From contig JBGAGI010000007.1 of NCBI GenBank assembly GCA_044226775.1, positions 275,879 to 339,878 of the forward strand: a stretch of DNA of 64,000 bases, read 5' to 3'. Both the position numbers and the translations under genes were made by a program. Shown in pieces: positions 14,251 through 54,044 of the stretch; position 1 is the stretch's first letter; each line of letters opens with the position of its first letter. The notes below the pieces were generated by a model. The model was not told the origin of the DNA, ran no database searches, and saw only the letters and a list, made by a program, of their open reading frames with translations. This DNA comes from Rubrivivax sp. (lineage in GTDB: Bacteria; Pseudomonadota; Gammaproteobacteria; Burkholderiales; Burkholderiaceae_C).

Positions 14251-14279
14251 CGGCCTGCCGGTGCCGGCGCGGCGGCCCT

Positions 14280-14305: not shown

Positions 14306-14313
14306 ATGCCAGC

Positions 14314-16399: not shown

Positions 16400-16419
16400 A
16401 GCCGCAGGGCGAGCCGGGC

Positions 16420-22895: not shown

Positions 22896-25139
22896 ATGCA
22901 AGCACGTCCTGAGTGGCCCGCAGTTTCGTCGCGGGCGGGGTATCGGCGGCTGCTCGTCGCGTTCCTCGGCTTCTTCGCCTGTGCGCTGGTGCAGGCGGCC
23001 GTTCCCGTCACCGAACCGCGACACGCCCTCGTCATCGGCAACGCCGCCTACGTGGCCGCGCCGCTGATCAACCCCGCCAACGACGCACAGGCCGTCGCCA
23101 AGGTGCTGCAGCGCGCCGGCTTCACGGTCGACCTGAAGCTCAACGCCACGCAGCGCCAGATGCAGGACGCCGTCACCAGCTTCGGCGACCGGCTCAAGAG
23201 CGGCGGCGCAGGCCTCTTCTACTTCGCCGGCCATGGCGTGCAGATCAAGGGCCGCAACTACCTGCTGCCGGTGGGCAGCGACATCCAGCGCGAGGACGAG
23301 GTCGCCTACAAGGCCGTCGACGTGCAGCAGGTGCTGGACAAGATGGAAACGGCCAAGAACCGCATCAACATGGTGGTGCTCGACGCCTGCCGCGACAACC
23401 CCTTCGCGCGCGCCTCGCGCTCCACCTCGGGCGGCCTGTCGCAGCTGGACGCGCCGATCGGCTCGCTGATCGCCTTCGCCACCGCGCCGGGCAGCGTGGC
23501 CAGCGACGGGCGCACGGCCAACGGCCTGTACACCCAGCACCTGCTGGCGAACATCGAGCGGCCGGGAACGGCGATCGAGGAAGTCTTCAAGCGTGTGCGC
23601 CTGGGCGTGCGACTCGATTCCAACGGCCAGCAGGTGCCCTGGGAAAGCACCTCGCTCGAAGGCGACTTCTACTTCTTCCCGCCGGCACCCACCGCCAAGA
23701 CCGGCCCGACGACGCTGCCGCCGCCGCCCGGCATCGAGCAGATCGCCCGCGCCGAGCGTGCCTACGAGCAGCTGCGCCAGGGCCAGGTGGACGATGCCGA
23801 GCGCATCTTCCGCGCGCTGGCCGGCAGCAGCCATCCGGAGGTCGTGCTGATGGGCCGCGAAGGCCTGGCCGAGGTCCAGCTGGTGAAGGGCGACACGCAG
23901 GGCGCGCTGGCCGAGGCCAACGACATCATCGCCAAGGCGCCCACGCGCAGCGCCGCCTACCTGATCCGCGGCCGTGCGCTGGCCGCCGCCGGCGACCGGC
24001 AGGCCGGCCAGGCCGCGATCACCCAGGCCGCCGCGCCGAACACCTCGGCCGACTTCTCCTGGCAGAAGGCCGACGCGCTGGTGGCCGTGGGCAACCAGCA
24101 GCGCCAGCAGGACCCGAAGCTCGCGGTGAAGACCTACGAGCGCGCGGCGCGCGAGAACCCGCAGTCGATGGCCGCGCTGTCGAACCTGGCCGTGGCGCTG
24201 AACGAGACCGGCCAACCGGCCAAGGCGCGCGCGGTGCTGGAACGCGCGAAGGAACTGGATGCGAACGACGCCGTCGTCGCCGCGCTGCTGCGCCAGACGC
24301 AGGAGGCCATCGCCGAGAGCCAGGACCTGGCGCGCCAGCGCTACATCGACGACGCGGTGAAGGACCTCGCCGCCCGCTTCCGCAACCCGCCGCCGCGGCC
24401 CGCATCGGCCGGCGCACCGGACGACTGGACCTCGGGCGCGGTCGCGCTGTCGATCCTGCCCTTCCAGGACCAGACGCTGACAATGGCCGGCGGCCGCATC
24501 GGCCTGGACGTGCTGCTGCAGCAGGAACTCTCGCGCGAGCTGCAGGCGCGCGGCTTCGCCGTCGTCGAACGCCGGCTGCTCGACAAGGTGCTCAACGAGG
24601 TGCGGCTGGGCTCCTCGGAGCTGGCCGACAGCGATACGCAGATCCGCCTGGGCCGGCTGCTCGCGGCGCGGCTGATGGTCTCCGGCTCGGTGGTGCCGAA
24701 CCCGGCCGGCGGTACGGCGGCCTCGTTCCGCGCCGTCGACACCGAGACCACGCAGCTGGCGCTGGTGCGTACCGAGCGCGCGGCTGCGGCCGCCGCCGGC
24801 GCGGCCTACGACCCGGCGCAGCTGGCCGCCGCCATTGCCAAGGCGGTGGCGCAGACGGTGGCCGACAAGTACCCGCTGAAGGGCCGCATCGTCTCGGTCG
24901 ATGGCGACAAGGCCATCATCAACATCGGCAAGAAGCAGGGCGTGGCCGCCGGCCAGCAGTTCAACGTGCTGGGCAAGGCCGAGCCGATCGAGCTCAACGG
25001 CCGCGTGCTGGGCTACAAGGAGACGCGCATCGGCCAGGTCACCGTCACCGAGGTCGAGGAAGGCCTCGCCTACGCGCGCGTCGCCACGCCGGCGCAGGGG
25101 TTGGAGCGCAACCAGCGCATCATCGCCCGCAAGGAATGA
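22896..25139 (+). CDS. Secreted caspase-family (peptidase C14) protein with TPRs, CsgG/TolB_N-like domain and FlgT_C-like domain, 747 aa
   Basis: Signal peptide ending VQA-A; ALVIGNAAY, FYFAGHG (His), VLDACRDNPF (Cys), QVPW; TPR helices; VVERRLLDKVLNEVRLG...LGRLLAARLMVSG; terminal GRIVSVDGDKAIINIGKKQGV. Confidence 0.88.
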   Translation: MQARPEWPAVSSRAGYRRLLVAFLGFFACALVQAAVPVTEPRHALVIGNAAYVAAPLINPANDAQAVAKVLQRAGFTVDLKLNATQRQMQDAVTSFGDRLKSGGAGLFYFAGHGVQIKGRNYLLPVGSDIQREDEVAYKAVDVQQVLDKMETAKNRINMVVLDACRDNPFARASRSTSGGLSQLDAPIGSLIAFATAPGSVASDGRTANGLYTQHLLANIERPGTAIEEVFKRVRLGVRLDSNGQQVPWESTSLEGDFYFFPPAPTAKTGPTTLPPPPGIEQIARAERAYEQLRQGQVDDAERIFRALAGSSHPEVVLMGREGLAEVQLVKGDTQGALAEANDIIAKAPTRSAAYLIRGRALAAAGDRQAGQAAITQAAAPNTSADFSWQKADALVAVGNQQRQQDPKLAVKTYERAARENPQSMAALSNLAVALNETGQPAKARAVLERAKELDANDAVVAALLRQTQEAIAESQDLARQRYIDDAVKDLAARFRNPPPRPASAGAPDDWTSGAVALSILPFQDQTLTMAGGRIGLDVLLQQELSRELQARGFAVVERRLLDKVLNEVRLGSSELADSDTQIRLGRLLAARLMVSGSVVPNPAGGTAASFRAVDTETTQLALVRTERAAAAAAGAAYDPAQLAAAIAKAVAQTVADKYPLKGRIVSVDGDKAIINIGKKQGVAAGQQFNVLGKAEPIELNGRVLGYKETRIGQVTVTEVEEGLAYARVATPAQGLERNQRIIARKE

Positions 25140-25831
25140 TGCATCGCCGCGCCGCGCTCACCGCCCTGCTGGCTTCGGCCGCGGCGGTGGCGCTCGCGCA
25201 GGCGCCGGCAAAACTGCCGGCCGTGGTGGTCTGGGACTTCGACGACCAGAGCGCCGGCAGCGCGCTGCAGGCCGGCCAGGCCGATTTCCTGAAGCGCTCG
25301 CTGTCCGAGAACCTCACCGCCGCGCTGCTGCAGGTGCCGGGGCTGCCGGTGGTGGAACGCCAGCGCGTGAAGGACCTGCTGGCCGAGCAGAAGATCGGCA
25401 GCGACGCGCTGGCCGATGCCGATGCCCGGCTGCGCCTGGGCCGCATCGTCGGCGCGGCGCGCATGGTCTTCGGCGGCTTCTTCGTGCTCGGCGACGCGGT
25501 GCAGGTGCACGTGCGCGTGGTCGAGACCGCCAGCTCGCGCGTGCTGTTCTCCGACGAGGCCGCCGCGCCGCTGGCCGCGGTGATGCAGGACGTCGACGAG
25601 ATGAACCGCCGCCTCGCCCAGGCCCTGGGCGGCGCAGCGGCTGCCGCACCGTCGCGCGCCGCCTTCCCGACCGCGCTGTGGCAGGCCTACGACAAGGCCC
25701 TGGCCCTGGCCGATGCGGGCCAGTACGACGCCGCCGTGGCCGCGCTGCAGGCGCTGCTGGCGCGCGACAAGGATTTCGCGCCAGCGGAGCGGCAGCTCGT
25801 GAGCCTGCTCGACCGCATGTCCAGAAAGTAG
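25136..25831 (+). CDS. Stand-alone CsgG/TolB_N-like domain + TPR protein, 231 aa
   Basis: ATGA overlap with the caspase stop; signal peptide (MHRRAAL..., possibly twin-Arg); VVVWDF, VVERQRVKDLLAEQKIG, LGRIVGAARMVFG, VRVVET; C-terminal TPR pair. Confidence 0.8.
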   Translation: MMHRRAALTALLASAAAVALAQAPAKLPAVVVWDFDDQSAGSALQAGQADFLKRSLSENLTAALLQVPGLPVVERQRVKDLLAEQKIGSDALADADARLRLGRIVGAARMVFGGFFVLGDAVQVHVRVVETASSRVLFSDEAAAPLAAVMQDVDEMNRRLAQALGGAAAAAPSRAAFPTALWQAYDKALALADAGQYDAAVAALQALLARDKDFAPAERQLVSLLDRMSRK

Positions 25832-25881
25832 CCGCGATTACGTTCTCTCTCCACAGAAACCCACGAGAAGCGCCAAAGCCC

Positions 25882-27570
25882 ATGTCCGCCCTCTTCCGCA
25901 ACCCGCTGGCCCTGGCCGTCGCAGGGGCCTGCGCGGCCCTGGCGGCGCCTTCGGCGCAGGCGCAGACGCCGCCCGACGCCGGCCGGCTGCTCGAGCAGAC
26001 CCAGCCCGCGCCGCGCCCGGTGCCGCCGGCCCAGGCGCCGCGTGTCGTCGAGCCGCCGGTGCGGCCGCCGATCGTCATGCCCGAGGGCATCACCGTCACG
26101 CCCAGCGCCTTTCGCGTCAGCGGCGCGGTCTCGTTCCCGGCCGAGGAGCTGCTGGCGCTGCTCAAGCCCTTCCTCGGCCGCAAGCTCGACCTCGCCGGGC
26201 TGAACGAGGCGGCGGGCGCCATCACGCGCCGCTACCAGTCGGCCGGCCACCTGCTGAGCTACGCCTACATCCCGGCGCAGCGCGTGGCCGATGGCGTGAT
26301 CGAGCTCGCGGTGCTCGAAGGCAAGCTCGAAGGCGTGCAGATCGTCACTGCGCAGGACGTGCGGCTGCGCGACGAGGTCATCCAGGCGCACACCGATGCA
26401 CTCTCGGGCGCGGCGCCGCTGAAGCAGGCCGAGGTCGAGCGCAAGCTGCTGCTGCTGAATGACATCGCCGGCGTCACCGCGCGCGCCGCGTTCACGCCCG
26501 GCAGCAGTACCGGCGGCGCCGAGATGGTGGTCTCGGTGGCCGAGGACGAACCGCTGGACGTGAAGCTGGAGTTCAACAACCACGGCACGCGCTCCACCGG
26601 CGAGTACCGTGCCGGCGTGAGCCTGCAGCTGCGCGACCTCTTCGGCTGGGGCGACGTCACCTCGGCGCGGGCCATGGCCTCGGGCCGCGGCGGCCTGGTC
26701 AACGGCTCGCTCGCCAGCTCGGTGCCGATGGGCGGCAACGGTTTCCGCATCGGCGCCAGCCTGTCGCGGCTGACCTACCAGCTGGCCGGTGCCTTCCGCA
26801 ACCTGGGCGCCACCGGCAACGCCAACACGCTGGGCGTCGACGTGAGCTACCCCTTCGTGCGCGGCACCAGCGCCAACCTCTCGATGCGGCTGGGCCTGGA
26901 AACCAAGCGCCTGCGCGACGACGTGGAGCTGGCCGCCACGCGCAACCCCAAGCGCAACGACAGCATCGACCTGGGCCTGAGCTTCGACGCCCGCGACGGC
27001 TGGGGCGGCGCCTCGGCCGGCAGCCTCACCGCCTCGATGGGCGACCTGCAGCTGCTCGGCGACGACCCCGGCGGCACGCGCAACCTGCTGGGCGGCGCGC
27101 GCCTGTACCGCAAGCTCGGCGCGCAGCTGGTGCGCCAGCAGTCGATCAGTGGGCCGTGGAACCTGTACCTGCGCTTCGCGGGCCAGTTCAGCGGCGGCAA
27201 CCTCGACAGCAGCGAGAAGTTCGGCCTCACCGGGCCGAACATGGTGCGCGCCTATGCGCCGGGCGAAGCCTCGGTGGACAACGGCGGCCTGCTCGCCGCC
27301 GAGGTCCGCTACACGCGCGACTACGTGGGCGGCAGCGTCACGCTGTCGCTGTTCCACGAGGCCGCCGCCGGGCTCGTCAACCGCCGGCCGCTGGCCAGCG
27401 CGACCACGGCCAACGACGTGCGCATCGCCGGCTCGGGCCTGGGCCTGCAGTGGGCCACCGGCGATGTCAGCCTCGGTGCCTCGCTCGCCTGGCGCTCGCG
27501 CAAGGCGCTGGGCATCGAGGGCGCCGACACGCAGCCGCGCCTGTTCCTGCAGATGGTCGTGACGCCCTAG
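25882..27570 (+). CDS. TpsB (ShlB/FhaC/HecB) two-partner secretion outer-membrane transporter, 562 aa
   Basis: Signal peptide; two POTRA domains (Y..AG...AYIPAQ....G...AVLEG); loop-6 motif MVRAYAPG (VRGY-like); C-terminal barrel strands. Confidence 0.93.
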   Translation: MSALFRNPLALAVAGACAALAAPSAQAQTPPDAGRLLEQTQPAPRPVPPAQAPRVVEPPVRPPIVMPEGITVTPSAFRVSGAVSFPAEELLALLKPFLGRKLDLAGLNEAAGAITRRYQSAGHLLSYAYIPAQRVADGVIELAVLEGKLEGVQIVTAQDVRLRDEVIQAHTDALSGAAPLKQAEVERKLLLLNDIAGVTARAAFTPGSSTGGAEMVVSVAEDEPLDVKLEFNNHGTRSTGEYRAGVSLQLRDLFGWGDVTSARAMASGRGGLVNGSLASSVPMGGNGFRIGASLSRLTYQLAGAFRNLGATGNANTLGVDVSYPFVRGTSANLSMRLGLETKRLRDDVELAATRNPKRNDSIDLGLSFDARDGWGGASAGSLTASMGDLQLLGDDPGGTRNLLGGARLYRKLGAQLVRQQSISGPWNLYLRFAGQFSGGNLDSSEKFGLTGPNMVRAYAPGEASVDNGGLLAAEVRYTRDYVGGSVTLSLFHEAAAGLVNRRPLASATTANDVRIAGSGLGLQWATGDVSLGASLAWRSRKALGIEGADTQPRLFLQMVVTP

Positions 27571-27611
27571 GGCGCGCGCACAGAAGAACCCGTCGTTCCG
27601 GAGATCCCGCC

Positions 27612-30600
27612 ATGCCCACCCGCCACCACGCCGCCTCGCCTGCAGCGCGCCGCCCGGCCGGACCGGGGTCCTCCCGCGGCCGGCGCCGGCGCTCGCCGCA
27701 GCATCGGCCGCGCATCTCGCGCCTGCTGGCCTGGCTGCTGGCGGCCTGGCTGGGCGGCGGCAGCAGCTGGGCACTGGCGCAGGTGGCGCCGGGCGCCCTG
27801 CCCACCGGCGCGCAGGTCCGCGTGGGCAGCGCGCAGCTGCAGCAGGGCGGCAACCAGCTCGTCATCCAGCAGAACAGCGCCAAGCTGGGCCTGGACTGGC
27901 AGAGCTTCAACATCGGCGCCAGTGCGACGGTCGAGTTCCGCCAGCCCGGCGCGAGTTCGATCGCGCTGAACCGCGTGCTGGGCAACAGCGGGACCGAGAT
28001 CTACGGCCAGCTGAAGGCCAACGGCCAGGTCTTCCTGACCAACCCCAACGGCGTGCTGTTCGCACCCGGCGCGCGCGTCGACGTGGGCGGCCTGGTAGCC
28101 AGCACGCTGGACTTGTCCCAGCAGGACTTCGCCGACGGCCGCTACACCTTCACCGCGGGAACCATGGCCACCGGCTCGGTGGTCAACCGCGGCACCTTGC
28201 GCGCCAGCGCGGGCGGCTACCTCGCGCTCTTCGCGCAACAGGTGAACAACGAGGGCGACATCGCCGTCGACTCGGGCGCGGTGATGCTGGCCTCCGGCCG
28301 CGCCGCGACGGTGAGCATCAGCGGCAGCGGCCTGCTGTCGGCCGTGGTGACGCAGGGCGCGGTGCCCGGCCGCGTGGACAACAGCGGCCGCATCGCGGCC
28401 GACGGCGGCGTGGTCACGCTGTCGGCGAAGTCGGCCGAGGGCATCGCCGCCTCGCTGGTGAACAACAGCGGCATCGTGCGCGCGAACGGCATCGTCGAGC
28501 GCGGCGGCGAGGTCTGGATCACCGGCGACGAGGTCAAGCTCGCCGGCACGGTGAGCGCCGACGCCACCGGCCGCGGCGACGGCGGCCGCATCAACGTGCT
28601 GGGTGATGCGAAGCGCGGACGTGTGCTGCTGACGGGTGAACTGCATGCACAGGCCGCCGGCGACGGCCAGGGCGGCTTCGTCGAGACCTCGGCCGCGCAC
28701 GTGCAGGTGGCCGACTCCGGCCGCGTCGCCACGCGCGGTGCCGGCGGCGGCGCGGCCGGCACCTGGCTCATCGACCCGGTCGACTACACGATAGCCGCCA
28801 GCGGCGGCGACATCACCGGCGCCGTGCTCTCGGCCAACCTGGGCAACGGCAACGTCGTCGTGCAGAGCAGCGCGGGCCAGCAGGGCACGGCGGGCAACGT
28901 CGTCGTCAACGACACGGTCAGCTGGTCGGCCAACCGGCTGACGCTCAACGCCTTCGCCAACGTCAACATCAACGCGTCGCTGGTGGGCAGCGGCACGGCC
29001 ACGCTCGCGCTCGAATACGGCCAGGGCGCGGTGGCCACCGGCAACGCGGCCACGTTCACGGTCGGCAGCAGCGCCAGCGTCTCGCTGCCGGCCGGCTCGA
29101 GCTTCAGCACCAAGCTCGGCAGCAACGGCAACACCACGCCCTACACCGTCATCAACACGCTGGCGGCACTGCGGCTGGTGGACGGCAACAGCACGGCGCT
29201 GGCGACCAACTACGCGCTGGGCGCCGACATCGACGCCAGCGACACCGCCACCACCGCTTTCAGCCCGATCGGCAACGAGGCGACGAGCGCGACCGGCGCC
29301 GCCAACAGCTTCAGCGGCCGTTTCGACGGGCTGGGCCATTCGATCGCCAACCTCACGGTCAACGCGCCTTCGGCGCAGGCCGTGGGCCTGTTCGGCAACA
29401 CGAACAACGCCGTCATTCGCAACCTGTCGATCACCGGCACCTCGGCGGTGACGGGCGCGCTGTACGTGGGCGCCGTGGTGGGCGCCGGCAACGGGACCAC
29501 CTCGCTGGACAACGTGCACAGCCTCGCGCGCGTGACCGGCACCAACGCCACCAATGGCGACGTGGGCGGCCTCGTCGGCTACACGGCTACCGGCACGATC
29601 GGCAACTCCAGCGTGGGCCGCGGCGTGGCGCCCGTGCAGGTGAGCGGCGGGCAGTACGTCGGCGGGCTGGTCGGCTTCCAGGGCAGCGGCGCGCTGTCGA
29701 ACGACGACGCCAACGTCGCGATCACCGGCAGCTCGATCTACGCCGGCGGCCTGGCCGGCCGCACCGGCGGCGCCACGAGCAACGGCACCAGCGCGGGCAG
29801 CGTCGCGACCAGCGGCAACGCCTGGATCGGCGGGCTGATCGGCCGCGCCGAGGGCAGCGGCGACATCACCGGCTCCAGCTCCAGCGCCAGCGTCACGACC
29901 ACGAACACCGGCACCTACGCGGGCGGCCTCATCGGCGGCCTGTACGGCGGCAGCGTCAGCGCCAGCAGCGCCAGCGGCAACGTCAGCGGCGGCAACCGCA
30001 CCGGCGGCCTCGTGGGCGACTTCAGCACCAGCGCCGGCGCGATCGTCACCGGCGGCCAGGCCAGCGGCGACGTGGCCGGCAGCACCGATGTCGGCGGCCT
30101 GGTGGGCTATGCCAGCGGCAACGGGCGCATCGTCTCCTCATCGGCCACCGGCAATGTGAGCAACGCGGGCAGCAACGGCCGTGTCGGCGGCGCGGTGGGC
30201 TACTTCGTGCTGAGCGGCGCCTCGCCGATCGTCGGGCTCGGTGCCAGCGGCAATGCCACCGGCGGCTCGATCGCCGGCGGCGTGATCGGCCAGCTCGACA
30301 CGAACGTGGCGCTTTCGCCGGCCAACCTGAGCAGCAATGCGCCGGCCAGCGGCACCAAGACGGTTTCCGCGGCGAGCTGGGCCGGCGGCCTGGTGGGCTA
30401 TCTCAATGCGGCCGGTGCGGTCAGCGGCTACAGCGGCGCCTCGGCGCTCACGGTGAACGTAAGCACCACGGGCGGCGGCGGCGCGGCCGGCGGCATGCTC
30501 GGCCGCAGCGTGGGGCCGGTCTCGGCCAGCGCCGGCAGCGGCACCGTCACGGCGGCCAATGGCTCCGCCGGCGGCCTCGTGGGCCAGGCCGACGGCAACG

Positions 30601-39600: not shown

Positions 39601-42176
39601 TCACGCTGGCCGGCGACGACGCGGGCAACTACACGCTGCGCTCGGACACGGCCACGGTCAGCGGCAGCATCACGCAGCGGCCGCTGGGCATCACGGGCCT
39701 GAGCGGCATCACCGCGATCGACCGCGTCTACGACGGTGGCACCACCGTGCAGCTGAACGTCGGCACGCTGGGCCCGGTGGCGCTGAACGACTCCGACAAG
39801 ATCATCGGCGACGATGTCTCGCTGGCCGGCATCAGCGGCAACCTGAGCACCGGGACGATGCTCGACAAGAACGCCGGCCAGGCCAAGCCGGTCACCGTCA
39901 GCGGCCTGACGCTGGTGGGCGCCGACGCCGGCAACTACAAGGTCGGCTTCGCCACCGGCGTGACCGTCGACATCACGCCGCTGGCGCTGACCGCCAGCTA
40001 CGCCGGCCTCGCGAAGGTCTACGACGGCCTGACCGGCATCGCGATCCGCGGCTCCAGCACGCAGGTGCTGGCGCAGGACGACGTGAGCATCGCCGGCACC
40101 GGCGTGTTCACCGGCGCCGGCGCGAAGAACGTGGGCACCGGCAAGACGGTGCAGATCGAGACCATGGCGCTGGGCGGTGCCGACGCCCGCAACTACCTGC
40201 TGACCAACCCGAGCGGCACGACCGTCGGCGACATCACGCCGCGCCTGCTGGCGCCCAGCTACACCGGCGGCTCGCGCGCCTACGACGGCAACGTGCTCGC
40301 CCCGGTGACGCTGGCCGATATCGGCCTGGTCGCGGGCGACGCGGTCAGCCTCACGCAGAACGCGCTCTTCACCGGCGCGGGCGCGAAGAACGTCGGCAGC
40401 AACAAGACCGTGTCGATCACCGGCATTGCGCTTTCCGGCGACGACGCCGGCAACTACCGGCTGCTGACCGACACGGCCACGGCCACCGCGAGCATCACGC
40501 CGCGGGCGGTGAACGTCACGGGCCTGGGCAACATCCAGGCCGTCAACCGCGTCTACGACGGCACGCGCGATGTGGAGATCAGGGTCACCGGCGCCACCGG
40601 CAGCGGCTCGACAACCGACTTCATCACCGGCGACGATGTCGCGCTGGTCGTGCCTTCGGGCGGGCTCGGCGGCGGGCTGATGGTCGACAAGAACGCCGGC
40701 CAGGGCAAGTCGGTCGCGGTCTCCGGCCTCACGCTGAGCGGCGCCGACAAGGACAACTACGCCATCACCGGCACCGCCGGCGTGACGGTCGACATCGCGC
40801 CGCGCGCCGTGACGGTGGCCGGCCTGGCGGCCATCGACCGCAGCTACGACGGCAGCACCACCGTGGCGCTGGACACGCGCAACGGCAGCCTTGCCGGCAT
40901 GCTCGGCACCGACGACCTGCGCCTGGCCTCGGTGGGCTCCACCGGCACGATGGCCGACAAGCACGTGGGCAACGGCAAGGCGGTGACGGTGTCGGGCATC
41001 GCGCTGGGCGGTGCCGACGCCGGCAACTACGTCGCCAGCGGCAGCGCCACGCTGAGCGTGAACATCGCCCCGCGCGCGCTGACCGCCAGCGCCACGGCCG
41101 ACAAGGTCTACGACGGCACGACCACCGCCAACCCGCTGCTCAGCGGCGTGGCGGCCTACGCCGGCGACGACCTGCGCATCACCTACGGCAGCGCCAGCTT
41201 CGCCGACAAGAACGCCGGCAGCGGCAAGACGGTCACGATCGACGGCCTGGCCCTGGCCGGCGCCGACGCCGGCGACTACCGGCTCGTCTCCGGCAGCACG
41301 CTCACCACCACCGCGACCATCGCCCGCGCGCCGCTGACGATCACCGCCGCCAGCCTGAGCAAGGTCTACGGGGAGACGCTCGCCTTCGGCGGCACCGAGT
41401 TCAGCGCCACCGGCCTGGTGGCCGGCGAGCGCATCGGGCAGGTCGCGCTGGCGAGCGCTGGCGGCGCCAGCGGCGCGGACGCCGGTGCCTACGCGCTCGC
41501 AGCGAGTGGCGCCAGCGGCGGCAGCTTCGACCCGGCGAACTACACGCTGGCCTACAACAACGGCGTGCTGACGGTGACGCCGCGGCCGGTCTACGTCACC
41601 GGCAAGATCGTCACCCGCATCGTCGGCGAGAAGGTGCCGGACGACTTCATCGGCAGCGTCGGCACCCAGGGCTACACGGTGGCCGCCGGCGGCCTGCTGG
41701 GCAGCGATGCGCTGGCCGGGGCGCTCATCACGCCCTCGGTGCCCGATGTCTCCAAGGCCGAGGCCGGCGCGCTGATCGCGCTCGTGCCCTCGAACGCCAG
41801 CTTCGCCTCCGGCAAGGCCTCGAACTACCGGCTGGAATACGCCAGCGGCCTGCTCGTCGTGCTGCCGGCGCCGGAGGCTGCCGCCAGCGAGGCCGGCAAC
41901 GGCGGCGGCGGCATCGACCCGGAGCAGTTCGGCCTCAACGGTGTCGACCAGGCGGCGGCGCAGGTGGTGCAGGAGCGTGTCCGCGCCTTCGTGGCGCAGC
42001 GTACGCCGGCGCTGGCGCTGGAACGCCTGCGCGACGCTGGCCTGGAGGACGCGACGCCGGGCGACCTGGCCGCACTGCTGTCGGGCGATCCGCAGCAGAT
42101 CACCGCGCTGCTGCTGCGCCGGCTGCCGCTGCTGTCGGTCGCGCCGGCGCTGCGCGGCGCCCGCCCTGCCCGCTGA
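27612..42176 (+). CDS. Giant TpsA adhesin-like exoprotein (TPS domain, GLUG repeats, about 26 YDG repeats, MBG-like domains, helical C-tail), 4854 aa
   Basis: Signal peptide ending ALA-Q; TPS domain LPTG...WQSFNIG...LNRV...NGQVFLTNPNG; dozens of GGLVG repeats (about 29.56-34.0 kb); xxYDG units (34.25-41.3 kb); APLTITA..KVYG; directly follows tpsB. Confidence 0.93.
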   Translation: MPTRHHAASPAARRPAGPGSSRGRRRRSPQHRPRISRLLAWLLAAWLGGGSSWALAQVAPGALPTGAQVRVGSAQLQQGGNQLVIQQNSAKLGLDWQSFNIGASATVEFRQPGASSIALNRVLGNSGTEIYGQLKANGQVFLTNPNGVLFAPGARVDVGGLVASTLDLSQQDFADGRYTFTAGTMATGSVVNRGTLRASAGGYLALFAQQVNNEGDIAVDSGAVMLASGRAATVSISGSGLLSAVVTQGAVPGRVDNSGRIAADGGVVTLSAKSAEGIAASLVNNSGIVRANGIVERGGEVWITGDEVKLAGTVSADATGRGDGGRINVLGDAKRGRVLLTGELHAQAAGDGQGGFVETSAAHVQVADSGRVATRGAGGGAAGTWLIDPVDYTIAASGGDITGAVLSANLGNGNVVVQSSAGQQGTAGNVVVNDTVSWSANRLTLNAFANVNINASLVGSGTATLALEYGQGAVATGNAATFTVGSSASVSLPAGSSFSTKLGSNGNTTPYTVINTLAALRLVDGNSTALATNYALGADIDASDTATTAFSPIGNEATSATGAANSFSGRFDGLGHSIANLTVNAPSAQAVGLFGNTNNAVIRNLSITGTSAVTGALYVGAVVGAGNGTTSLDNVHSLARVTGTNATNGDVGGLVGYTATGTIGNSSVGRGVAPVQVSGGQYVGGLVGFQGSGALSNDDANVAITGSSIYAGGLAGRTGGATSNGTSAGSVATSGNAWIGGLIGRAEGSGDITGSSSSASVTTTNTGTYAGGLIGGLYGGSVSASSASGNVSGGNRTGGLVGDFSTSAGAIVTGGQASGDVAGSTDVGGLVGYASGNGRIVSSSATGNVSNAGSNGRVGGAVGYFVLSGASPIVGLGASGNATGGSIAGGVIGQLDTNVALSPANLSSNAPASGTKTVSAASWAGGLVGYLNAAGAVSGYSGASALTVNVSTTGGGGAAGGMLGRSVGPVSASAGSGTVTAANGSAGGLVGQADGNVVFDGLSFTGSVSSGTTSGSVGGLFGSITGTGATLTNGTVGTAGSPVTVSNGSFTGGLVGSSSAASVSGTAYVTITGNGSYLGGIVGRSGGAVSASTATGTLTSASTGYVGGLVGRAENASGGSDLISGSTANMTVTVSSTGAYVGGLVGSSSNVGISGSTATGTVSGGARTGGLVGDFFSNAQTPLNIDSSTASGNVSGASDTGGLVGYSSGNGAISGSGATGNVNGTTSNGSIGGALGYSALSGGFTGLTAQGNVAGGDTGGGVIGTLAANLVLAPANLRSVAPASGTKTVSSSSVAGGLIGNSQSSQLISGFTGSNAMSADVSATASGGTAGGLLGISRGPVANSTSSSAVSGQTAGGLVGNASTSIAGTLTDVSASGSVTGTGSGGSIGGLVGVVSGSLSIAHGTASGVVSNGGIAGGLVGSFSGSGSIVANGSGEISQAGGAVSGRTQAGGLVGDAGGSGSITGALATGRVAGSASGGDLGGLVGRFRMSGGIGGSEARGNVTGDLSSNAGGLVGRVDDGAGDITASRSTASAVSGGIAGGFIGSVTVYDGFSIIDGHARADVAGDSYVGGLVGYLGGGSPSNAAGVLRDVSASGRVTGTNYVGGLVGSLQGRSIVNGQATGPVVGTSSLGQNVLYIGGLVGEFNSGYWGTAQTISGASSASGSVTSDSYYSYAGGLVGYMNGQTALSNVSASGAVTQLDTISGGTSSSSHYAGGLVGLASGIIGIDHGSTGPGSNVTGRGVSGGLVGYFASSSSPTLAFAYGGSITGSTVSGVTVTGFDGVGGLVGQFSSNSGNINNSSALLVAVRSAGTGASYLGGLAGSASLGTNAFRVSATGSVSGVAQYAGGLFGELSSGGIETSSANVTISGAVQLAGGLVGRAVPSIANAWIRDSSAAGDVSSTRSSAFAGGLVGQYSNSSGYGSIVNSSASGDVTLSGNTSTGGGLVGNYSSSTARASDDINGSFASGDVTTTQIGGGLVGQFTGVRGIVLSGATGNVTLTTLDGVQAGGLAGIFQALTSGTATGLIDRSYASGNVAGTPGKVLGNFATATAGGLVGLLRTPLATTVAISDAYATGSVTLASSSTSNSSTIVEGGLVGESQGSILRGYATGAVSGSGAVTVTAGGLVGRLTNGRSTATATASLWAADSTGRSTSAGGGTASTLAAMRQAATFTAAGWPSISSAFSSGTTWRVYEGLTTPLLADLLKPLNLTLSDASKVYDGTTSFGNATLPGVQNPDKLFITSPSPNVGSYGFTAASVFSNQQGYNIGSISGSGTLSITPRALTLAGTVADKVYDATRDATFKPGAQPLGLVAGEDLVLDTSTALAAFDTKNVGSAKAVTITGVTLANGTRGLASNYSLSTTGATATVTPATLNAGGFSAVDRVYNGSTLVQVNATSGTLDGVLGTDQVSVDLSGVTSGTMANKNVGNAKTVTVSGIALGGADAGNYLLAGSSNVTVNITPRTLTVDGLAPPSRTYDSATDVYTPANGATLNGLITGDVVGLADSYFYGTIADKNVGTAKPVTYGAGVIRLRGVDAANYTPQAGATAVDVTPAQVGIGVNFQNGSNTKVYDGSAAAPFVITSVFKYAGDDLTLSTSTPSFADKNVAYDSNGNVVSRQITIAGGVLSGADAGNYQLQSTTRTTSGTITPRPLAVTGVSATPRAYDGTANVEVNLANVSVDTTVVVPNDDVAVQLPGSSTVTGTIPNKNAGNNRPVTVPGLALTGADRRNYTLTGTNGVTVNIAQRDVTAVYTGLSRPYDGGTSAWVSAAEAPGTEFIANDNIVFSTNYIPSSPCYLTCGFFPGTGTAPRSAGTGKAFTINSVYLVGTDAANYRLTNPSGSGTATVTPKDITAAFTGTSKVYDGSASADGAVGLNKGNSGIFSFDNVTSTQSAVFTDAVPKNVGTNKPVAISGIVLGGTEAGNYRLLTTTASATAGVTAKPVTVSGISAIDRNYDGTTAVQLNVGALGSAGFVQNDVVSVVPPTGNAGTIADKNAGNAKPVTVTGLALTGADAANYRIDAAASGITVNIAKRPLTATYTGVARPYDGSTLATVTAASADIVVGDTVSFTQTAQFTGPDARNTGTAKPVAVTGIAIDSGSQANYALQNTTASTTADITARGVTVTFTGVSRVYNGADDHSISVNGTSSDDVFRVDAVQITQQAVLAGDGNAGTGKAVNVSGIALSGPGASNYTLANTTATTTATILPRPIGVTGITATSRAYDGTDVVAVNLSNATLDRSAILGTDALTLVTPGGSSTGTLHAGKNAGLGKVVDVSGLLLSGASAANYTVAGASGLTVDITPKPVSATYRAADKTYDGSANAAITAQSAGFEAVDVGAVGISASGSFSDKNAASGKTVSVLAGFLTGVERGNYSLLNPTGQTTATISPKLLTAAYTGGSRVYDQGVSAPVTAQRTGVIAGDDLSFTQTAVFTGANAKNAGSNKAIAITGIALAGADAGNYRLQATTASATGTVTPKDLTVSGLTNVTATNRVYDGTPTVEVTIPSGSVITPNSADIISGDDVSISVPVAGVTTGTMRDKNVGTDKPLTITGLSLSGTDKDNYQIVGAAGVTVNISPLAISASYAGISRAYDGSVNASVRGSSAGILGGDSLTISGSGVFTGAGAKNVGTGKAIDVRSASLSGVDARNYTLTNPSGAATGDVTPLFLTASYSGGTRVYDGGTAAPVTGSAGFVGGDDIRLVQNAVFTGATARDAGTNKAISVTGITLAGTDAANYRLNNASATTSGTVTPKPIRIDGLTGVSAHDRVYDGTRDVVVDVLSNGTITVNTADIVPGDLVDVAVPQTGTTTGRMADKNVGVGKAVTVTGLGLSGTDAHNYTINVANGVTVNISPLALTATYGGVARIYDGGTTASVTGSASGIVVGDALTITGSGVFTGAGAKNAGTAKPIEVLSAQLGGTDARNYTLVNTTGSASGDILRRQLGVTYADVTRVYDGTVLAPVTGTLDATDFIAGDKVTLSQSAVFTGTGAKNVGSGKAVSISGITLAGDDAGNYTLRSDTATVSGSITQRPLGITGLSGITAIDRVYDGGTTVQLNVGTLGPVALNDSDKIIGDDVSLAGISGNLSTGTMLDKNAGQAKPVTVSGLTLVGADAGNYKVGFATGVTVDITPLALTASYAGLAKVYDGLTGIAIRGSSTQVLAQDDVSIAGTGVFTGAGAKNVGTGKTVQIETMALGGADARNYLLTNPSGTTVGDITPRLLAPSYTGGSRAYDGNVLAPVTLADIGLVAGDAVSLTQNALFTGAGAKNVGSNKTVSITGIALSGDDAGNYRLLTDTATATASITPRAVNVTGLGNIQAVNRVYDGTRDVEIRVTGATGSGSTTDFITGDDVALVVPSGGLGGGLMVDKNAGQGKSVAVSGLTLSGADKDNYAITGTAGVTVDIAPRAVTVAGLAAIDRSYDGSTTVALDTRNGSLAGMLGTDDLRLASVGSTGTMADKHVGNGKAVTVSGIALGGADAGNYVASGSATLSVNIAPRALTASATADKVYDGTTTANPLLSGVAAYAGDDLRITYGSASFADKNAGSGKTVTIDGLALAGADAGDYRLVSGSTLTTTATIARAPLTITAASLSKVYGETLAFGGTEFSATGLVAGERIGQVALASAGGASGADAGAYALAASGASGGSFDPANYTLAYNNGVLTVTPRPVYVTGKIVTRIVGEKVPDDFIGSVGTQGYTVAAGGLLGSDALAGALITPSVPDVSKAEAGALIALVPSNASFASGKASNYRLEYASGLLVVLPAPEAAASEAGNGGGGIDPEQFGLNGVDQAAAQVVQERVRAFVAQRTPALALERLRDAGLEDATPGDLAALLSGDPQQITALLLRRLPLLSVAPALRGARPAR
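29560..34000 (+). repeat. GLUG-type (GGLVG) peptide repeat region of TpsA
   Basis: Recurrent ggcggcctggtgggc / GGLVG every 25-35 aa; includes a 371-aa internal duplication (PASGTKTVS at 30342 and 31455). Confidence 0.9.
34255..41330 (+). repeat. YDG-type domain repeat region of TpsA
   Basis: About 26 units of about 90 aa, each with (K/R)xYDG...KNxG.xK...L.G.DA.NY. Confidence 0.9.
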
Positions 42177-42218
42177 GATATCCCCGAGAAGAACGACAAC
42201 CCCTTCGCACGCCATCCG

Positions 42219-43571
42219 ATGACCCCCAAGCACAAGCACACGATGCGCCGGCGGCGCGCCCGCACGGTGGCCGCCGCGGCGGCGGCCGCCTTTGCGCTGA
42301 TGGCCGCCACGGCGGCCCGGGCCGCGCCGCTGGACGACATCCGCCGCCAGGTCGAGGCCAGCCAGTTCGAGCAGGCCTGGGCCACCGCGCAGGCCAACCC
42401 GCAGCTGATCGGCGACGTGCACTTCGACTTCCCCTACGGCGTGGCCGCCATCGCCACCGGGCGCGTGGCCGAGGGCCTGCTCGCGCTGGAGCGCCACCTC
42501 GCCGCGGTGCCGGCGAACGACCGCGCGCGGCTGGAGCTGGCGCGCGGCTACTTCCTGCTCGGCGAGTACGCGCGCGCCCGCGCCGAGTTCGAGTTCGTGC
42601 TGCGCTACAACCCGCCGGCCGGCGTGCGGGCGAACATCGAGAGCTACCTGCTGGCGATGCAGTCGCGCGAAGGCGCGACGCGGCGCAGCGCGGCGCGGCT
42701 GTACGTGGAGGCCGGCGCCGCGCACGACAACAACGTGAACCTCGGCACCTTCCACGACGTGGTGGCGCTGGACACCGCCACGTTCAGCCTCGAGGGCAGC
42801 CCCTCGCGCCAGATGAGCGACGATCAGGCCCTGCTGGCGCTGGGCGGCGAGCGCAGCTTCCGCGTCACCGCGCGCACCTCGGTCTTCGCCGGCGCCGATG
42901 TCGACCACCGCGAGAACTCGCGCCTGAAGCAGTTCAACCTGACGAACGCGAACGGCTACATCGGCTTCTCGCAGATCGCGGGCAACGCGCTGTGGCGCAC
43001 CAGCCTGGGCGGCGGCGAGATGATGGTCGGCGGCAACCGCTACCGCGACACGCGGTCGGTGGACACCGAGGCCGAGTTCACGCTGCGCGCGAACTTCTCG
43101 GTCTCGGTCTTCGGGCGCTACGCCGAGATCCGCCACGCGCAGGCCGACGAGATCCGCGACAACAACGCCAGCACGCTGGGCAGCAGCTTCACCTGGCGCC
43201 CCGGCGACACGCCCGGCACCGCCAGCCTGGGCCTGCGCGTGAGCTACATGCACGAGGGCTCGACCACCGCGCGGCCCTACCTCGCGCACGACAGCAGCTT
43301 CGTGCGCGTGTTCGCCTCGATGGCCCCGATCGACCGCCTCTTCGTCAGCGGTGGCCTGAGCGCGCGCCAGGACCGCTACGGCCAGGCCGACCCCACGTTC
43401 AAACAGCGCCGCCGCGACGACTGGATCAACGCCGACCTGCTGATGGCCTGGACCCTGGGCGCCGGCTGGTCGCTGCGCGGCGAGGCGCTGTGGACCATCA
43501 ACCGCTCGAACATCGACCTGTTCGACTACGGGCACAAGATGGCCTCGCTGAAGCTGCGCTACCAGTACTGA
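42219..43571 (+). CDS. TPR + outer-membrane beta-barrel protein, Slam/DUF560-like, 450 aa
   Basis: Signal peptide; TPRs (DFPYGVAAIATG, RARLELARGYF..GEY..ARAEFE.VL..NPP..V..NI..YL); barrel starting GAAHDNNVN with alternating aromatic strands and terminal LRYQY. Confidence 0.75.
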   Translation: MTPKHKHTMRRRRARTVAAAAAAAFALMAATAARAAPLDDIRRQVEASQFEQAWATAQANPQLIGDVHFDFPYGVAAIATGRVAEGLLALERHLAAVPANDRARLELARGYFLLGEYARARAEFEFVLRYNPPAGVRANIESYLLAMQSREGATRRSAARLYVEAGAAHDNNVNLGTFHDVVALDTATFSLEGSPSRQMSDDQALLALGGERSFRVTARTSVFAGADVDHRENSRLKQFNLTNANGYIGFSQIAGNALWRTSLGGGEMMVGGNRYRDTRSVDTEAEFTLRANFSVSVFGRYAEIRHAQADEIRDNNASTLGSSFTWRPGDTPGTASLGLRVSYMHEGSTTARPYLAHDSSFVRVFASMAPIDRLFVSGGLSARQDRYGQADPTFKQRRRDDWINADLLMAWTLGAGWSLRGEALWTINRSNIDLFDYGHKMASLKLRYQY

Positions 43572-43615
43572 GCACCGTGAACGACCTGAACGACGACAGC
43601 CGACCGGAGTTGCCG

Positions 43616-44791
43616 ATGACCGCTCGATCGAACCCGCCCGCGCCCCGCACGCTGCTGGCCGCGCTGGCCCTTGCCGCGCTCGCGCCAGCCACCGCCTGGA
43701 GCCAGGACCGCATCGTGCGCGCCGAAGGCAGCGTGCTGCTCAACGGCCAGCCGGTGGCCGCCGGCGCCGCGCTGGCCGACGGCCGCCTGCAGACCGGCGC
43801 CGACGGCCGGGTGCAGGTGCGCATGGCCAGCGGCGCGCTGATCGTGCTGCCGCCCGACAGCGCCGTGGTGATGCGCGCCGACGTGCCGCGGGCCATCGGC
43901 CTGGCCGCCGGCGGGCTGCGGCTGAGCACCGCGGGCAGCGAATGGCGCGTGGAGCTGCCGGACCGCGACATCCGCACCAACGGCTACCTGAAGCTGCAGC
44001 CCTGCGCCGCCGGCTGCACGCTGCCGCCCGGGCTGTACGGCCGCATCGCGCAGGGCGAGGCGGTGCTCGAGTACCGCGGCGGCCGCTCGGTGCTGCGCGG
44101 CCGCAACTTCCGCTGGGCCGATGCCGGCTCGCGGCCCGAGCTGCTCAGCACCGCGCCGGCGCTGCTGGACGACGCCAGCACGATCGACGCCGCCACGCGC
44201 GCCCGCGCCCAGGTGGCCGTCACGCTGAAGGCCGGCCTGGACGCCTTCGCCGCCGGCGACGACGCCGCGGCGCAGCGTGCGCTCGACATCGTGGCCGCGC
44301 AGTCGCCGGGCGAGCCGCTGGTCTCGTACTACCTCGGCCTGATCGCGCTGAAGCAGGAGCGCAACGCCGAGGCGCTGCGCCTGCTGCAGCAATACGCCCG
44401 CGAAGACCCGGCCGGCGCCGCGCAGCGCGAGGTCGCCAAGACGTTGACGGTGCTGTCGTCCACGCAGCTGCAGCAGGAGGTGGCCACCGCGGTGGCGCGC
44501 GAGCAGCAGGTGGCCGCCACGCCGCCGGAGCCCGGCTCGATCGCCGTGCAGGCCTTCGTCAACCGCGGCAGCGAGAGCTACCGGGCGCTGGCCAAGGGCC
44601 TGGCCGCGATGATCATCGCCGACCTCTCCAAGGTCCCCGGCCTGACGGTGCTGGAGCGCGAGAAGGTGCAAAGCCTGATCGACGAGGCCAAGCTCGGCGA
44701 CGCGGGCCTGGCCGACACCAGCTCGGCGGTGCGCTCGGGCCGGCTGATGCGGGCCGAGAAGGTCGTCGTCGGCAACTTCGAGGTGAAGTGA
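43616..44791 (+). CDS. Secreted FecR-like + TPR protein ending in the N-terminal part of a CsgG/TolB_N-like domain, 391 aa
   Basis: GGAG RBS; signal peptide ending AWS-Q; LQTGADGRVQV..ASG..IVL.PDS (FecR-like); TPR SYYLGLIAL; C-terminal IAVQAF...VLEREKVQSLIDEAKLG...GRLMRAEKVVVGNFEVK*. Confidence 0.75.
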   Translation: MTARSNPPAPRTLLAALALAALAPATAWSQDRIVRAEGSVLLNGQPVAAGAALADGRLQTGADGRVQVRMASGALIVLPPDSAVVMRADVPRAIGLAAGGLRLSTAGSEWRVELPDRDIRTNGYLKLQPCAAGCTLPPGLYGRIAQGEAVLEYRGGRSVLRGRNFRWADAGSRPELLSTAPALLDDASTIDAATRARAQVAVTLKAGLDAFAAGDDAAAQRALDIVAAQSPGEPLVSYYLGLIALKQERNAEALRLLQQYAREDPAGAAQREVAKTLTVLSSTQLQQEVATAVAREQQVAATPPEPGSIAVQAFVNRGSESYRALAKGLAAMIIADLSKVPGLTVLEREKVQSLIDEAKLGDAGLADTSSAVRSGRLMRAEKVVVGNFEVK

Positions 44792-46191
44792 TGGGCAAGA
44801 ACCGTCTCCCCTGCCTGCACGTCGCCGCAGCGCTGCTGCTGGTCGCCGCATCGGCCGCCCAGGCGCAGGCGCAGGCCCAGGTCCAGGCCCAGGCCTACAC
44901 GCTCGAAGGCGCCGTGGTCGACAGCCGCAACGGCCAGAGCCTGGGCGTGATCAACGAGCGCGGCGACATCGCCGGCGTGTTCCGCGCGCAGAAGGCGATG
45001 ACCTTCGGCATCCTGCGCGCCGCGGGCATCTCGCTGGAGCAACTGCCGGCCGACGTGCGGGCACGCATCGAGCGCTTCCAGACCCAGAACGTCGAAGCCT
45101 TCCGCGCCTTCTCCGAGGGCCTGGACCTGAAGGACAAGGGCCGCTTCGCCGAGGCCAAGGCGCAGTTCCGCCGCGCCGCCGAGCTCGACCCCGGCTTCGC
45201 GCTGGCGCAGGAGCAGGCGCAGGCCATGCCCGACAGCAACGTCACCGCCGGCCTGCAGATGCGCGCGCTGCTGGCCGCGGTGGCCGGCACCGCGGTCGAT
45301 CGCGGCAAGGTCTCGGTGGTGGTCGACGCGGCGCGCGCCATCGCCGCGCTCGGCGCCGGGCTGCAGGTGGTGGCCATCGCGGCCGAGCCGAGCAGCCGCG
45401 CCGACAACACCTACACCGCCAATCCGGCCGGCGCCGGCAACCAGTTCCAGCCCGACCTGGTGGTCGGCCTCGCCTACCACCAGGTGGGCGAGGCGCAGGC
45501 GGTGCTCGGCGTGGCCAGCGCGCAGGTGTGGCCTGGCACGGCCTACGCCGTCGACGGCAATGCGCTCGAATCGATCGGCGGGCCTGGCGCGTTCGAGGCG
45601 CGGCGCGCGCGCGCGACGCAGGCGCCGGTGGGCAGCACCGCGCTGGCCGACGGCAGCAGCGTCTACTGGGGCTCCTGGGCCGCGAGCCCGCAGGGCAACT
45701 GGGTGGCGGCGTCCAGGAGCAACGCCATCGCGGTGGCCGGGCCCTTCGCCTACGTCATCGGCCAGGCGCCCACGGAAATGCCGCAGTCCAACACCTTCAC
45801 CTTCGCCGCGCGCGCCAATGCCGGCACGCTGGGCTCGCCCGAAGGCAACATCGTCGTCGACTTCGCGCGCCAGACGGTGGCGCTGCAGAACCTGGGCTTC
45901 ACGATCGACGAGCGCTTCGCCTTCTCCGGCCTCAACGGCAACGCGCGCTTCGGCGTGGCCGGCTCGCCGGGCAACCTGGTGGCGGCCGACCCGAACGCGG
46001 CCGACCGCACGCCGCGCTACACCAGCGGCAGCTGCGCCGGTTGCGGGCCGGGCTTCACCGCCAGCTCCGGCACCTTCGGCGGCAACTTCGTCGGCCGCGG
46101 CTACACCGGGCTGGTCTTCTCGACCATCCTGCCCACCGGCGTGGCGGCCACGCCGGTGGTCTCCGGCGTGCACCTGTTCGCGCGGCCCTGA
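44791..46191 (+). CDS. Secreted protein: C-terminal part of a CsgG/TolB_N-like domain + TPR + beta-rich (TbpB/hemophilin-like barrel candidate) domain, 466 aa
   Basis: TGATG overlap with the upstream stop; own signal peptide with AQA sites; LEGAVVDSRNG; TPR AFSEGLDLKDKGRF...DPGF; C-terminal YWGSW, VDFARQ, FGGNFVG strands and a CAGC pair. Confidence 0.7.
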   Translation: MGKNRLPCLHVAAALLLVAASAAQAQAQAQVQAQAYTLEGAVVDSRNGQSLGVINERGDIAGVFRAQKAMTFGILRAAGISLEQLPADVRARIERFQTQNVEAFRAFSEGLDLKDKGRFAEAKAQFRRAAELDPGFALAQEQAQAMPDSNVTAGLQMRALLAAVAGTAVDRGKVSVVVDAARAIAALGAGLQVVAIAAEPSSRADNTYTANPAGAGNQFQPDLVVGLAYHQVGEAQAVLGVASAQVWPGTAYAVDGNALESIGGPGAFEARRARATQAPVGSTALADGSSVYWGSWAASPQGNWVAASRSNAIAVAGPFAYVIGQAPTEMPQSNTFTFAARANAGTLGSPEGNIVVDFARQTVALQNLGFTIDERFAFSGLNGNARFGVAGSPGNLVAADPNAADRTPRYTSGSCAGCGPGFTASSGTFGGNFVGRGYTGLVFSTILPTGVAATPVVSGVHLFARP

Positions 46192-54022: not shown

Positions 54023-54044
54023 GGGGCCTCCTCGGACTTCGCCG

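Follow-up and report, generated by a model that had tools for sequence, protein, structure and literature searches.

Whether a secreted caspase-like protease, a giant surface fibre with its transporter, and an outer-membrane barrel with a candidate cargo belong to one envelope system is the question raised by a locus of Rubrivivax sp. (assembly GCA_044226775.1, contig JBGAGI010000007.1). The locus occupies positions 22896-46191 of a 64,000-nt stretch of this contig (positions 275,879 to 339,878), called here the window, and comprises seven genes, designated g1 to g7. They code for a caspase-like protein fused to periplasmic domains (g1), a small CsgG-like protein (g2), the transporter and the exoprotein of a two-partner secretion (TPS) pair (TpsB, g3, and TpsA, g4), a barrel protein with the architecture of Slam exporters (g5) and two proteins that share one domain between them (g6 and g7). 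Every component is of a known kind; what sets this TPS system apart is the unusual group of accessory proteins dedicated to it, including a divergent type 11-like pair. We favour, tentatively and with slightly more doubt than belief, the explanation that the locus encodes a TPS adhesin together with proteins dedicated to it, namely a periplasmic scaffold for docking and processing and a Slam-like partner at the surface; the mechanism is one that we infer.

All seven genes are oriented in the same direction, and each of their products begins with a signal-peptide-like segment, in which a basic and hydrophobic stretch closes in an AxA-type site (judged by eye). Proceeding from g1 to g7, the first pair of genes overlaps by 4 nt, the next four junctions are spaced by 50, 41, 42 and 44 nt, and the last pair overlaps by 1 nt. 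The G+C fraction at third codon positions (GC3) is 0.94-0.98 for the frames of g1, g4 and g5, and homologues of conserved length were found for g1, g5 and g7. An earlier sequence-only reading had described seven co-directional genes with such gaps, overlaps and signal peptides, and gene calls, junctions and N-termini agree with it. Nearly all domains that it proposed were recovered by Pfam and NCBIfam, with corrections concerning the Slam identity of g5 and the CsgG identity of the modules described below.

The association of the caspase gene with the TPS genes extends beyond the window. A metagenome scan with the scaffold part of g1 as query, followed by local searches of the flanks with profile hidden Markov models (HMMs), gave 28 loci with a caspase scaffold open reading frame (ORF), 22 of them with enough flanking sequence to be judged. 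TpsA genes stand beside the caspase scaffold gene in 20 of these 22, including three rearranged loci, and a g2-type gene adjoins it in 25 of the 28. About 20 loci, with g1 at least 70% identical, carry g1-g2-TpsB-TpsA directly after smpB; where the far end is visible in close relatives, TpsA-g5-g6-g7 is followed by metZ-like genes. Three loci (L086, L088 and L119) contain none of the flanking genes of the window. With the outgroup query of that scan their g1 homologues share 42-44% identity (for comparable outgroup representatives, identity to g1 itself is 41-47%), and they have an additional AhpC/TSA domain. In L086, g2-g1 on one strand converge with TpsA-g5-g6-g7 on the other, L088 and L119 have the order TpsA-g5-g6-g7-g1, and L091 contains g2(-), g1(+) and g7(-). 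The order TpsA-g5-g6-g7 is invariant across loci while the position of g1/g2 varies. As negative control served 78 caspase-only loci from diverse named genomes, obtained by a contig scan with a full-length caspase alignment and matching at two active-site motifs; TpsB, TPS, g5 or g7 was found within 10 kb in none of them. TpsA genes were likewise found beside the scaffold in none of 53 non-caspase scaffold loci. The scan with the caspase alignment also returned two Rubrivivax-type loci (L006 and L007) that matched over almost the whole query, and the locus L047, which matched to residue 709, seemingly across two distinct ORFs.

Features of the locus (positions refer to the window; aa, amino acids)
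Feature	Positions	Strand	Length	Description
g1	22896-25139	+	747 aa	Secreted caspase-like (C14) protease with TPR, CsgG/FlgO/LpoB-like alpha/beta module and FlgT_C-like tail
g1, caspase p20-like catalytic domain	23019..23672	+		aa 42-259, with FAGHG His and DACR Cys; PF00656
g1, scaffold part	23754..25091	+		TPR aa ~287-475, CsgG-like ~520-640, FlgT_C-like 670-732
g2	25136-25831	+	231 aa	Small secreted protein, complete CsgG-like module and C-terminal helical TPR-like hairpin
g3	25882-27570	+	562 aa	TpsB outer-membrane transporter, POTRA_2 and ShlB barrel
g4	27612-42176	+	4854 aa	TpsA exoprotein with TPS domain, Glug, YDG and MBG_2
g4, C-terminal tail	41874..42173	+	~100 aa	Ala/Leu/Arg-rich, follows last MBG-like domain
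g5	42219-43571	+	450 aa	Outer-membrane protein, periplasmic TPR and 14-strand beta-barrel, Slam/T11SS (type 11 secretion system)-like architecture (AlphaFold2 model)
g6	43616-44791	+	391 aa	Secreted, FecR-like and TPR, ends in first part of CsgG-like module
g7	44791-46191	+	466 aa	End of CsgG-like module, TPR-like helices and TbpB/fHbp-like C-domain

A second link between the genes is provided by a module that recurs in g1, g2 and g6. The sequence-only reading had counted three CsgG-like modules, and their paralogy is borne out by pairwise identities of 33-41%. In g2 the match to the CsgG profile PF03783 reaches 46 bits and covers profile positions 3-97; g1 (36.8 bits) and g6 (32 bits, module portion aa 302-391) match the N-terminal half of the profile. 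Because only positions ~3-100 of the 210-position profile are covered in all three, and because the module regions of homologues also match the FlgO and LpoB models (PF17680 and PF13036), the modules are small periplasmic alpha/beta modules of the CsgG/FlgO/LpoB superfamily and not CsgG channels. The locus thereby carries the same small module as CsgG, as FlgO, FlgP and FlgT of the Vibrio H-ring and outer disc, and as LpoB; the FlgT_C-like domain of g1 is a further likeness to FlgT. Contrary to the CsgG curli channel, the modules of the locus have no transmembrane hairpins and are not accompanied by curli genes, csg genes being absent from the window; contrary to FlgO, FlgP and FlgT, they are not accompanied by flagellar genes at the locus. 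They also differ from all these relatives by their fusion to TPR repeats and to enzymatic heads, either caspase or AhpC/TSA.

The third module is divided between two genes. Downstream of its TPR (aa 204-270, Pfam), g6 stops within the module, and alignment identifies aa 36-58 of g7 as the last two strands of the domain started in g6. In locus L004 (JGI contig Ga0436429_0002), g6 and g7 are fused into a single 843-aa ORF with the junction sequence ...RAEKVVVGNFEASAGPAG...AQTFALEGAVIDSRS; in the window, g6 ends with ...RAEKVVVGNFEVK(stop) and mature g7 starts with YTLEGAVVDSRNG. Concatenated, the end of g6 and the start of mature g7 recapitulate the whole domain when aligned to the modules of g1 and g2 and to an unsplit protein of locus L117, the break falling at a hairpin loop. 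What had been read as a "half CsgG" in each of g6 and g7 can therefore be recognized, from the fused homologue and the alignment to unsplit domains, as the halves of one module. Since the outgroup locus L086 has the same split, its second half being equipped with its own signal peptide, the split is conserved and the fusion in L004 probably secondary. By these alignments, two separately exported polypeptides probably reconstitute one fold, which would tie g6 and g7 physically together.

The head of g1 matches Peptidase_C14 (PF00656) strongly (E 2.5e-37, 129 bits), and its His and Cys columns are invariant in six aligned sequences with identity down to 39-41%, so that the caspase assigned to this gene from the sequence has both the expected family match and an intact catalytic dyad. 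The FlgT_C match (PF16538) of g1 itself is 25.7 bits against a cut-off of 27; homologues score 28-33.5 bits, above the cut-off, and the hit is precomputed for most close relatives. More than 120 homologues are at least 70% identical to g1, and those bearing names come from Rubrivivax species and metagenome-assembled genomes; isolate-labelled records with g1 homologues include Rubrivivax rivuli and Rubrivivax sp. A210. With bacterial orthocaspases (C14) the protein shares the p20-like domain with its conserved dyad, and cleavage after basic residues is expected for the orthocaspase family. It differs from them in being Sec-exported and fused to an envelope scaffold, and its gene is tied to a secretion system and not to cytoplasmic cell-death or defence modules. 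An anti-phage reading was dropped, PADLOC returning a generic caspase hit alone, and defence or cell-death roles are unlikely for Sec-exported proteins of the locus.

The TPS pair, proposed from the sequence, is real: g3 matches POTRA_2 (PF08479, 66.3 bits) and ShlB (PF03865, 88.6 bits), both above cut-off, and g4, which begins 41 nt after g3, has a TPS domain at aa 63-311 (PF05860, 127.7 bits; TIGR01901, 82 bits) and a visible NPNG motif. The body of g4 combines Glug repeats (~aa 820-1935) with 25 YDG domains and a single MBG_2 domain (aa ~4575-4654), and the fibre looks like an adhesin, not a toxin carrier. A toxin role of the contact-dependent inhibition type was rejected, the C-terminus being without a toxin module or VENN motif by inspection and Pfam finding only YDG and MBG_2 there. 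The possibility that g4 is itself the Slam-like cargo was rejected as well, its C-terminus having no recognisable beta-barrel domain and no local similarity to g7. The tail contains a PL(I/L)(S/T) motif near its end and is partly conserved in four other TpsA C-termini, including those of rearranged outgroups; it is a candidate periplasmic docking or processing segment.

The closest described counterpart is Bordetella FhaC/FhaB with the proteases DegP and SphB1. The C-terminal prodomain of FhaB reportedly undergoes regulated degradation started by DegP (PMC8263021), and SphB1 is reported to process FhaB (PMC6070651). The locus resembles this system in its TpsB with POTRA_2 and ShlB, in its giant TpsA with an N-terminal TPS domain and an adhesin-like repeat body, and putatively in a C-terminal segment that could remain periplasmic and be removed by dedicated proteases. 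It differs in its candidate protease, a secreted C14 enzyme of caspase fold borne by a TPR/CsgG-like/FlgT_C scaffold instead of DegP or an autotransporter subtilisin; in the tail of g4, which has only ~100 aa in place of a large prodomain and whose processing is a prediction; and in the five accessory genes that the cluster itself contains.

The remaining pair, g5 and g7, is characterized mainly by predicted structure. The AlphaFold2 model of g5 (38-sequence alignment, mean pLDDT 88.4) shows TPR-like helices at aa 37-153, followed by 14 long strands at aa 157-449, with pLDDT mostly above 90. TPR_19 matches in 38 of 38 members of the g5 family, and HMM hits on g5 of the window, as on g7, are weak and confined to TPR; for the 241 detectable members of the family, precomputed Pfam annotation amounts to one TPR hit and one MtrB_PioB hit. 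In the model of g7 (40 sequences, mean pLDDT 79, C-domain above 90), the signal peptide and the strands at aa 36-58 lead into TPR-like helices (60-188). A linker of low confidence (~189-222) joins these to a beta domain, in which a handle spans 223-325 and eight long strands span 335-464. The fold of this C-domain (aa 223-464) has 48 matches in the PDB with E <= 0.001, every one of them to TbpB, fHbp, hemophilin or NHBA. NCBIfam has no specific family for g5 and g7, nor for g2 and g6. Hemophilin and NHBA also belong to the cargo of Slams, hemophilin being a soluble, non-lipidated one. Slams are defined by a TPR N-domain and a predicted 14-strand DUF560 barrel, and their cargo has a common handle and eight-strand barrel with no mutual sequence similarity; TbpB and fHbp are documented as Slam-dependent proteins (Hooda et al., PMC5449769).

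Compared with T11SS cassettes (Slam1-TbpB, Slam-fHbp, HsmA-hemophilin), the locus has in g5 the same combination of periplasmic TPR and 14-strand barrel, and g5 lies two genes upstream of the cargo-fold protein g7, with only g6, fused to g7 in one relative, in between. It departs from these cassettes in that g5 stays under the DUF560 HMM threshold, that the candidate cargo is not a lipoprotein, that g7 begins with one part of a periplasmic scaffold domain, the other part of which is contributed by g6, and that the pair is embedded in a putative TPS operon. Because of the TPR and 14-strand barrel of one member and the TbpB/fHbp-type cargo fold of the other, g5 and g7 look like a divergent type 11 secretion pair. 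We conclude that they have, in the structural models, the architecture of a type 11 cassette, yet that g5 is not a DUF560 member by the curated model.

In the mechanism that we propose, g3 would export the 4854-aa repeat fibre of g4. Three paralogous periplasmic modules with TPR (g1, g2 and g6/g7) would form a scaffold under the outer membrane, a proposal made because their relatives, the CsgG, FlgO, FlgP and FlgT families, form oligomeric structures there. The scaffold would keep the active caspase-like protease g1 near the secretion site, the TPR repeats would dock the tail of TpsA, and g1 would trim or release this periplasmic C-terminal tail, by analogy with the processing of the FhaB prodomain. 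The TbpB-like C-domain of g7 would be exported by the g5 barrel or thread it, while in the periplasm the domain left incomplete in FecR-like g6 would be filled in by the first strands of g7; the bond between g6 and g7 would then connect the scaffold in the periplasm with something on the surface of the cell. Since the N-terminus of g7 is a half-domain completed by g6, its cargo domain may be tethered across the membrane and not fully released, and we estimate from the model that the low-confidence linker of ~34 residues would be long enough for a membrane crossing. In its most specific version, the linker of g7 would thread g5, the TbpB-like domain would sit on the surface, the N-terminal strands would complete g6, and the scaffold-held caspase would cut the tail of TpsA upon surface events; in this full form we consider the scheme unlikely. 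If it is true, type Vb and type 11 secretion would for the first time be functionally linked, and a bacterial caspase homologue of the periplasm would for the first time have a defined substrate.

Several observations weigh against the explanation that we favour, and three alternatives were considered. The Slam-like role of g5 may be questioned: the barrel could be an ordinary porin-like or MtrB/PioB-like one and g7 purely periplasmic, the likeness to Slam cassettes being convergent or too weak to mean export. The score of g5 against PF04575 (SlipAM/DUF560) is only 12.5 bits with a cut-off of 22 (E 0.11), sub-threshold hits occur in 15 of 38 relatives (best E 9.4e-5), and OMP_b-brl, BBP2_2 and MtrB_PioB are similarly weak; one g5 homologue is named MtrB/PioB family by NCBI. 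Fold matches of g5 in the PDB are generic barrels (OmpG, CymA, FadL, BcsC), the best target-normalised TM-scores belonging to the 14-strand OmpG and CymA and the best E-values to BcsC, a TPR and barrel protein, and a profile of g5 found zero matches among PDB sequences. On the side of g7, TM-scores are modest (0.2-0.6, target-length normalised), a lipobox is missing, and the C-domain has no sequence-level match to known cargo, Pfam on 40 relatives and the PDB profile search both returning TPR only. The last point is expected because known Slam cargo share no sequence similarity, and hemophilin, present among the fold matches, is a non-lipidated cargo. An N-terminal TPR with exactly 14 strands, beside a protein of TbpB/fHbp/hemophilin/NHBA fold, corresponds moreover to the definition of a Slam cassette, and in the metagenome loci scanned g5 and the C-domain of g7 always co-occur and were found only in loci of the TpsA/caspase type. 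We regard the plain barrel as quite unlikely; of the Slam/DUF560-like exporter claimed by the sequence-only reading, the architecture of g5 and the cargo-like fold of g7 hold, and membership in PF04575 does not. A role in sensing has been considered for the same genes: a signal from the surface would pass by way of the TbpB-like domain of g7, placed at the surface or lodged in the barrel, and of FecR-like g6 to enzymes of the periplasm (the caspase or thioredoxin-like heads) and further to cyclic di-GMP (c-di-GMP) or Ser/Thr kinase signalling, the TpsA fibre being sensed or controlled. The FecR-like domain (aa 57-120) is consistent in this family, with 20.6 bits in g6 and 20-22 bits in all four proteins tested (g6 and three homologues), all of them below the PF04773 cut-off of 24. 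A CHASE2-PAS-GGDEF-EAL gene near g1 in L088, a GGDEF gene beside g6/g7 in L004, Ser/Thr kinase-PEGA genes in about 20 scaffold loci and an FHA-EAL gene in L093 would suit such a device, but the window contains no kinase, GGDEF, EAL or CHASE2 gene, the signal peptide of g6 looks cleavable, the protein has neither a transmembrane nor an anti-sigma part, and no sigma factor or transducer adjoins its gene, the nearest extracytoplasmic function (ECF) sigma factor lying 7 kb off beside unrelated cytochrome genes. We hold the sensing device to be improbable.

The other alternative takes the locus for two independent neighbours, in which g1-g2 would supply a protease and a scaffold of general use in the periplasm, serving envelope protein quality control or signalling, and g3-g7 a self-contained adhesin export unit, their adjacency being inherited within the Rubrivivax clade. 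Two loci at the same site, L098 (Ga0209181_10001544, 8993-13471) and L099 (Ga0068877_10004296, 4184-10006), have smpB-g1-g2-metZ-rimO and lack g3-g7. Because they keep the first two genes alone, the system has to be considered modular, and the protease scaffold does not strictly depend on the TPS/Slam-like block. The ~20 Rubrivivax-type loci share the smpB context, which fits vertical inheritance; being mostly one clade at one chromosomal site, they carry little independent weight. The fixed order of TpsA-g5-g6-g7, with a shifting g1/g2, points in the same direction, as does the scaffold family as a whole: its members are more often AhpC/TSA-headed, placed beside Ser/Thr kinase-PEGA genes and free of TPS genes, which argues for a more general envelope or signalling role. 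Against independence stand the three loci that lack the flanks of the window, have another gene order and still hold the caspase scaffold beside TpsA-g5-g6-g7; the module shared by g6/g7 with g1 and g2, which links the two blocks by domain content; and the 78 other caspase loci, none with TPS genes. On balance we find two independent neighbours rather unlikely. The persistence of the caspase gene beside TpsA-g5-g6-g7 after rearrangement supports a linkage beyond one clade; the claim made from the sequence, that all seven genes form one machine, is too strong in view of the two loci restricted to g1-g2. A further point against the explanation that we favour is that a scan gave no recognisable promoter and no terminator above shuffled expectation.

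The scaffold part of g1 belongs to a wider protein family. The ~460-aa TPR-CsgG-like-FlgT_C part of g1 proved widespread in an exhaustive search of cluster representatives, its N-terminal head being a caspase, AhpC/TSA, or both. Both heads occur in the g1 homologues of L086 (8411-11272) and L088 (8186-11365), which have an extra AhpC/TSA thioredoxin-like domain between caspase and TPR; one exported scaffold protein can therefore bear two enzyme heads. About 20 loci (L117 7935-17247, L093 4069-9269, L118, L138, L111, L125, L126 among them) follow an operon type with a Ser/Thr kinase-PEGA gene, an AhpC/TSA-headed scaffold gene and a g2-like gene, the kinase-PEGA gene lying directly upstream of the scaffold gene wherever coordinates were checked. 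This operon type is widespread, and we found it described in no paper. About a dozen of the AhpC/TSA-type loci add a third CsgG-like protein, and the TbpB-like domain is missing in all of them; in L117, where it was aligned, the third protein is a single unsplit ORF. L117 further contains a 673-aa protein without Pfam hit (13629-15647), followed by a 516-aa TPR protein (15700-17247). In an hhalign comparison the latter and the g5 family align weakly across 304 columns, with E 0.0018 and a probability of only 15%, and have in common a C-terminal NRSN-x-x-L-(F/Y) motif; the two proteins of L117 may represent a second, more distant TPR-barrel pair. As to signalling genes, FHA-EAL follows the scaffold operon in L093, in the rearranged outgroup L088 the caspase scaffold gene is followed after 1.3 kb by CHASE2-PAS-GGDEF-EAL (12656-15670), and the GGDEF gene of the Rubrivivax-type relative L004 is found at 14007-15875 (-).

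Our literature searches found no paper on this gene combination, on the scaffold family or on the split domain, and two T11SS survey papers contained none of the relevant terms. Published surveys of type 11 systems take DUF560 members as their starting point, and g5 scores below the DUF560 threshold. To our knowledge, most orthocaspases are without a known substrate. If the parts of the locus cooperate, a definite role outside the cytoplasm would be assigned to a bacterial caspase homologue, type 11 (Slam-like) export would come to include a divergent branch of free-living Betaproteobacteria that escapes the DUF560 model, and a secretion cargo would be at hand whose N-terminus is a half-domain completed by a second protein. 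The analysis also brings to light that periplasmic TPR-CsgG/FlgO-like-FlgT_C scaffolds form a widespread and uncharacterised family with swappable heads (caspase or thioredoxin-like), often encoded near Ser/Thr kinase or c-di-GMP genes.

The surroundings of the locus are those of an ordinary chromosome. The source sample is a bioreactor metagenome, for which a search of sequencing runs returned DNA runs only, and G+C content is uniform at ~70% throughout the window. Housekeeping genes precede the locus (guaA, an MFS transporter, guaB, DUF4124, ratA, smpB), metZ-like, rimO, phaR and suhB follow it in convergent orientation, and the remainder of the window consists of ordinary metabolism and transport genes. 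Rfam at gathering scores found zero families anywhere in the window (1-64000), so that no known riboswitch leader was detected; the same search gives no tmRNA gene beside smpB. The final 15 nt of smpB, GGTCCGAAGGACTGA (22600-22614), are repeated exactly at 22688-22702, and a perfect 10-bp hairpin, CTGATGAGAC-agaaa-GTCTCATCAG, immediately precedes this second copy. The 15-mer thus has 2 copies against 0.04 expected by chance, and zero at the far end of the locus. A genomic island inserted at smpB was considered and rejected, the repeat lying only 74 nt downstream and not at the far end of the locus, and G+C content being uniform. About 7 kb upstream of the locus, and with no evident connection to it, are encoded a fusion protein of cytochrome c and cytochrome P460 (12772-13683, -) and, near it, a sigma factor of the ECF type whose N-terminus is extended by a long stretch (14544-15500, +). 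On the other side, positions 50777-55361 (-) hold an ordinary RND efflux pump, composed of an AcrB-family protein of 1081 aa and a HlyD-type adaptor.

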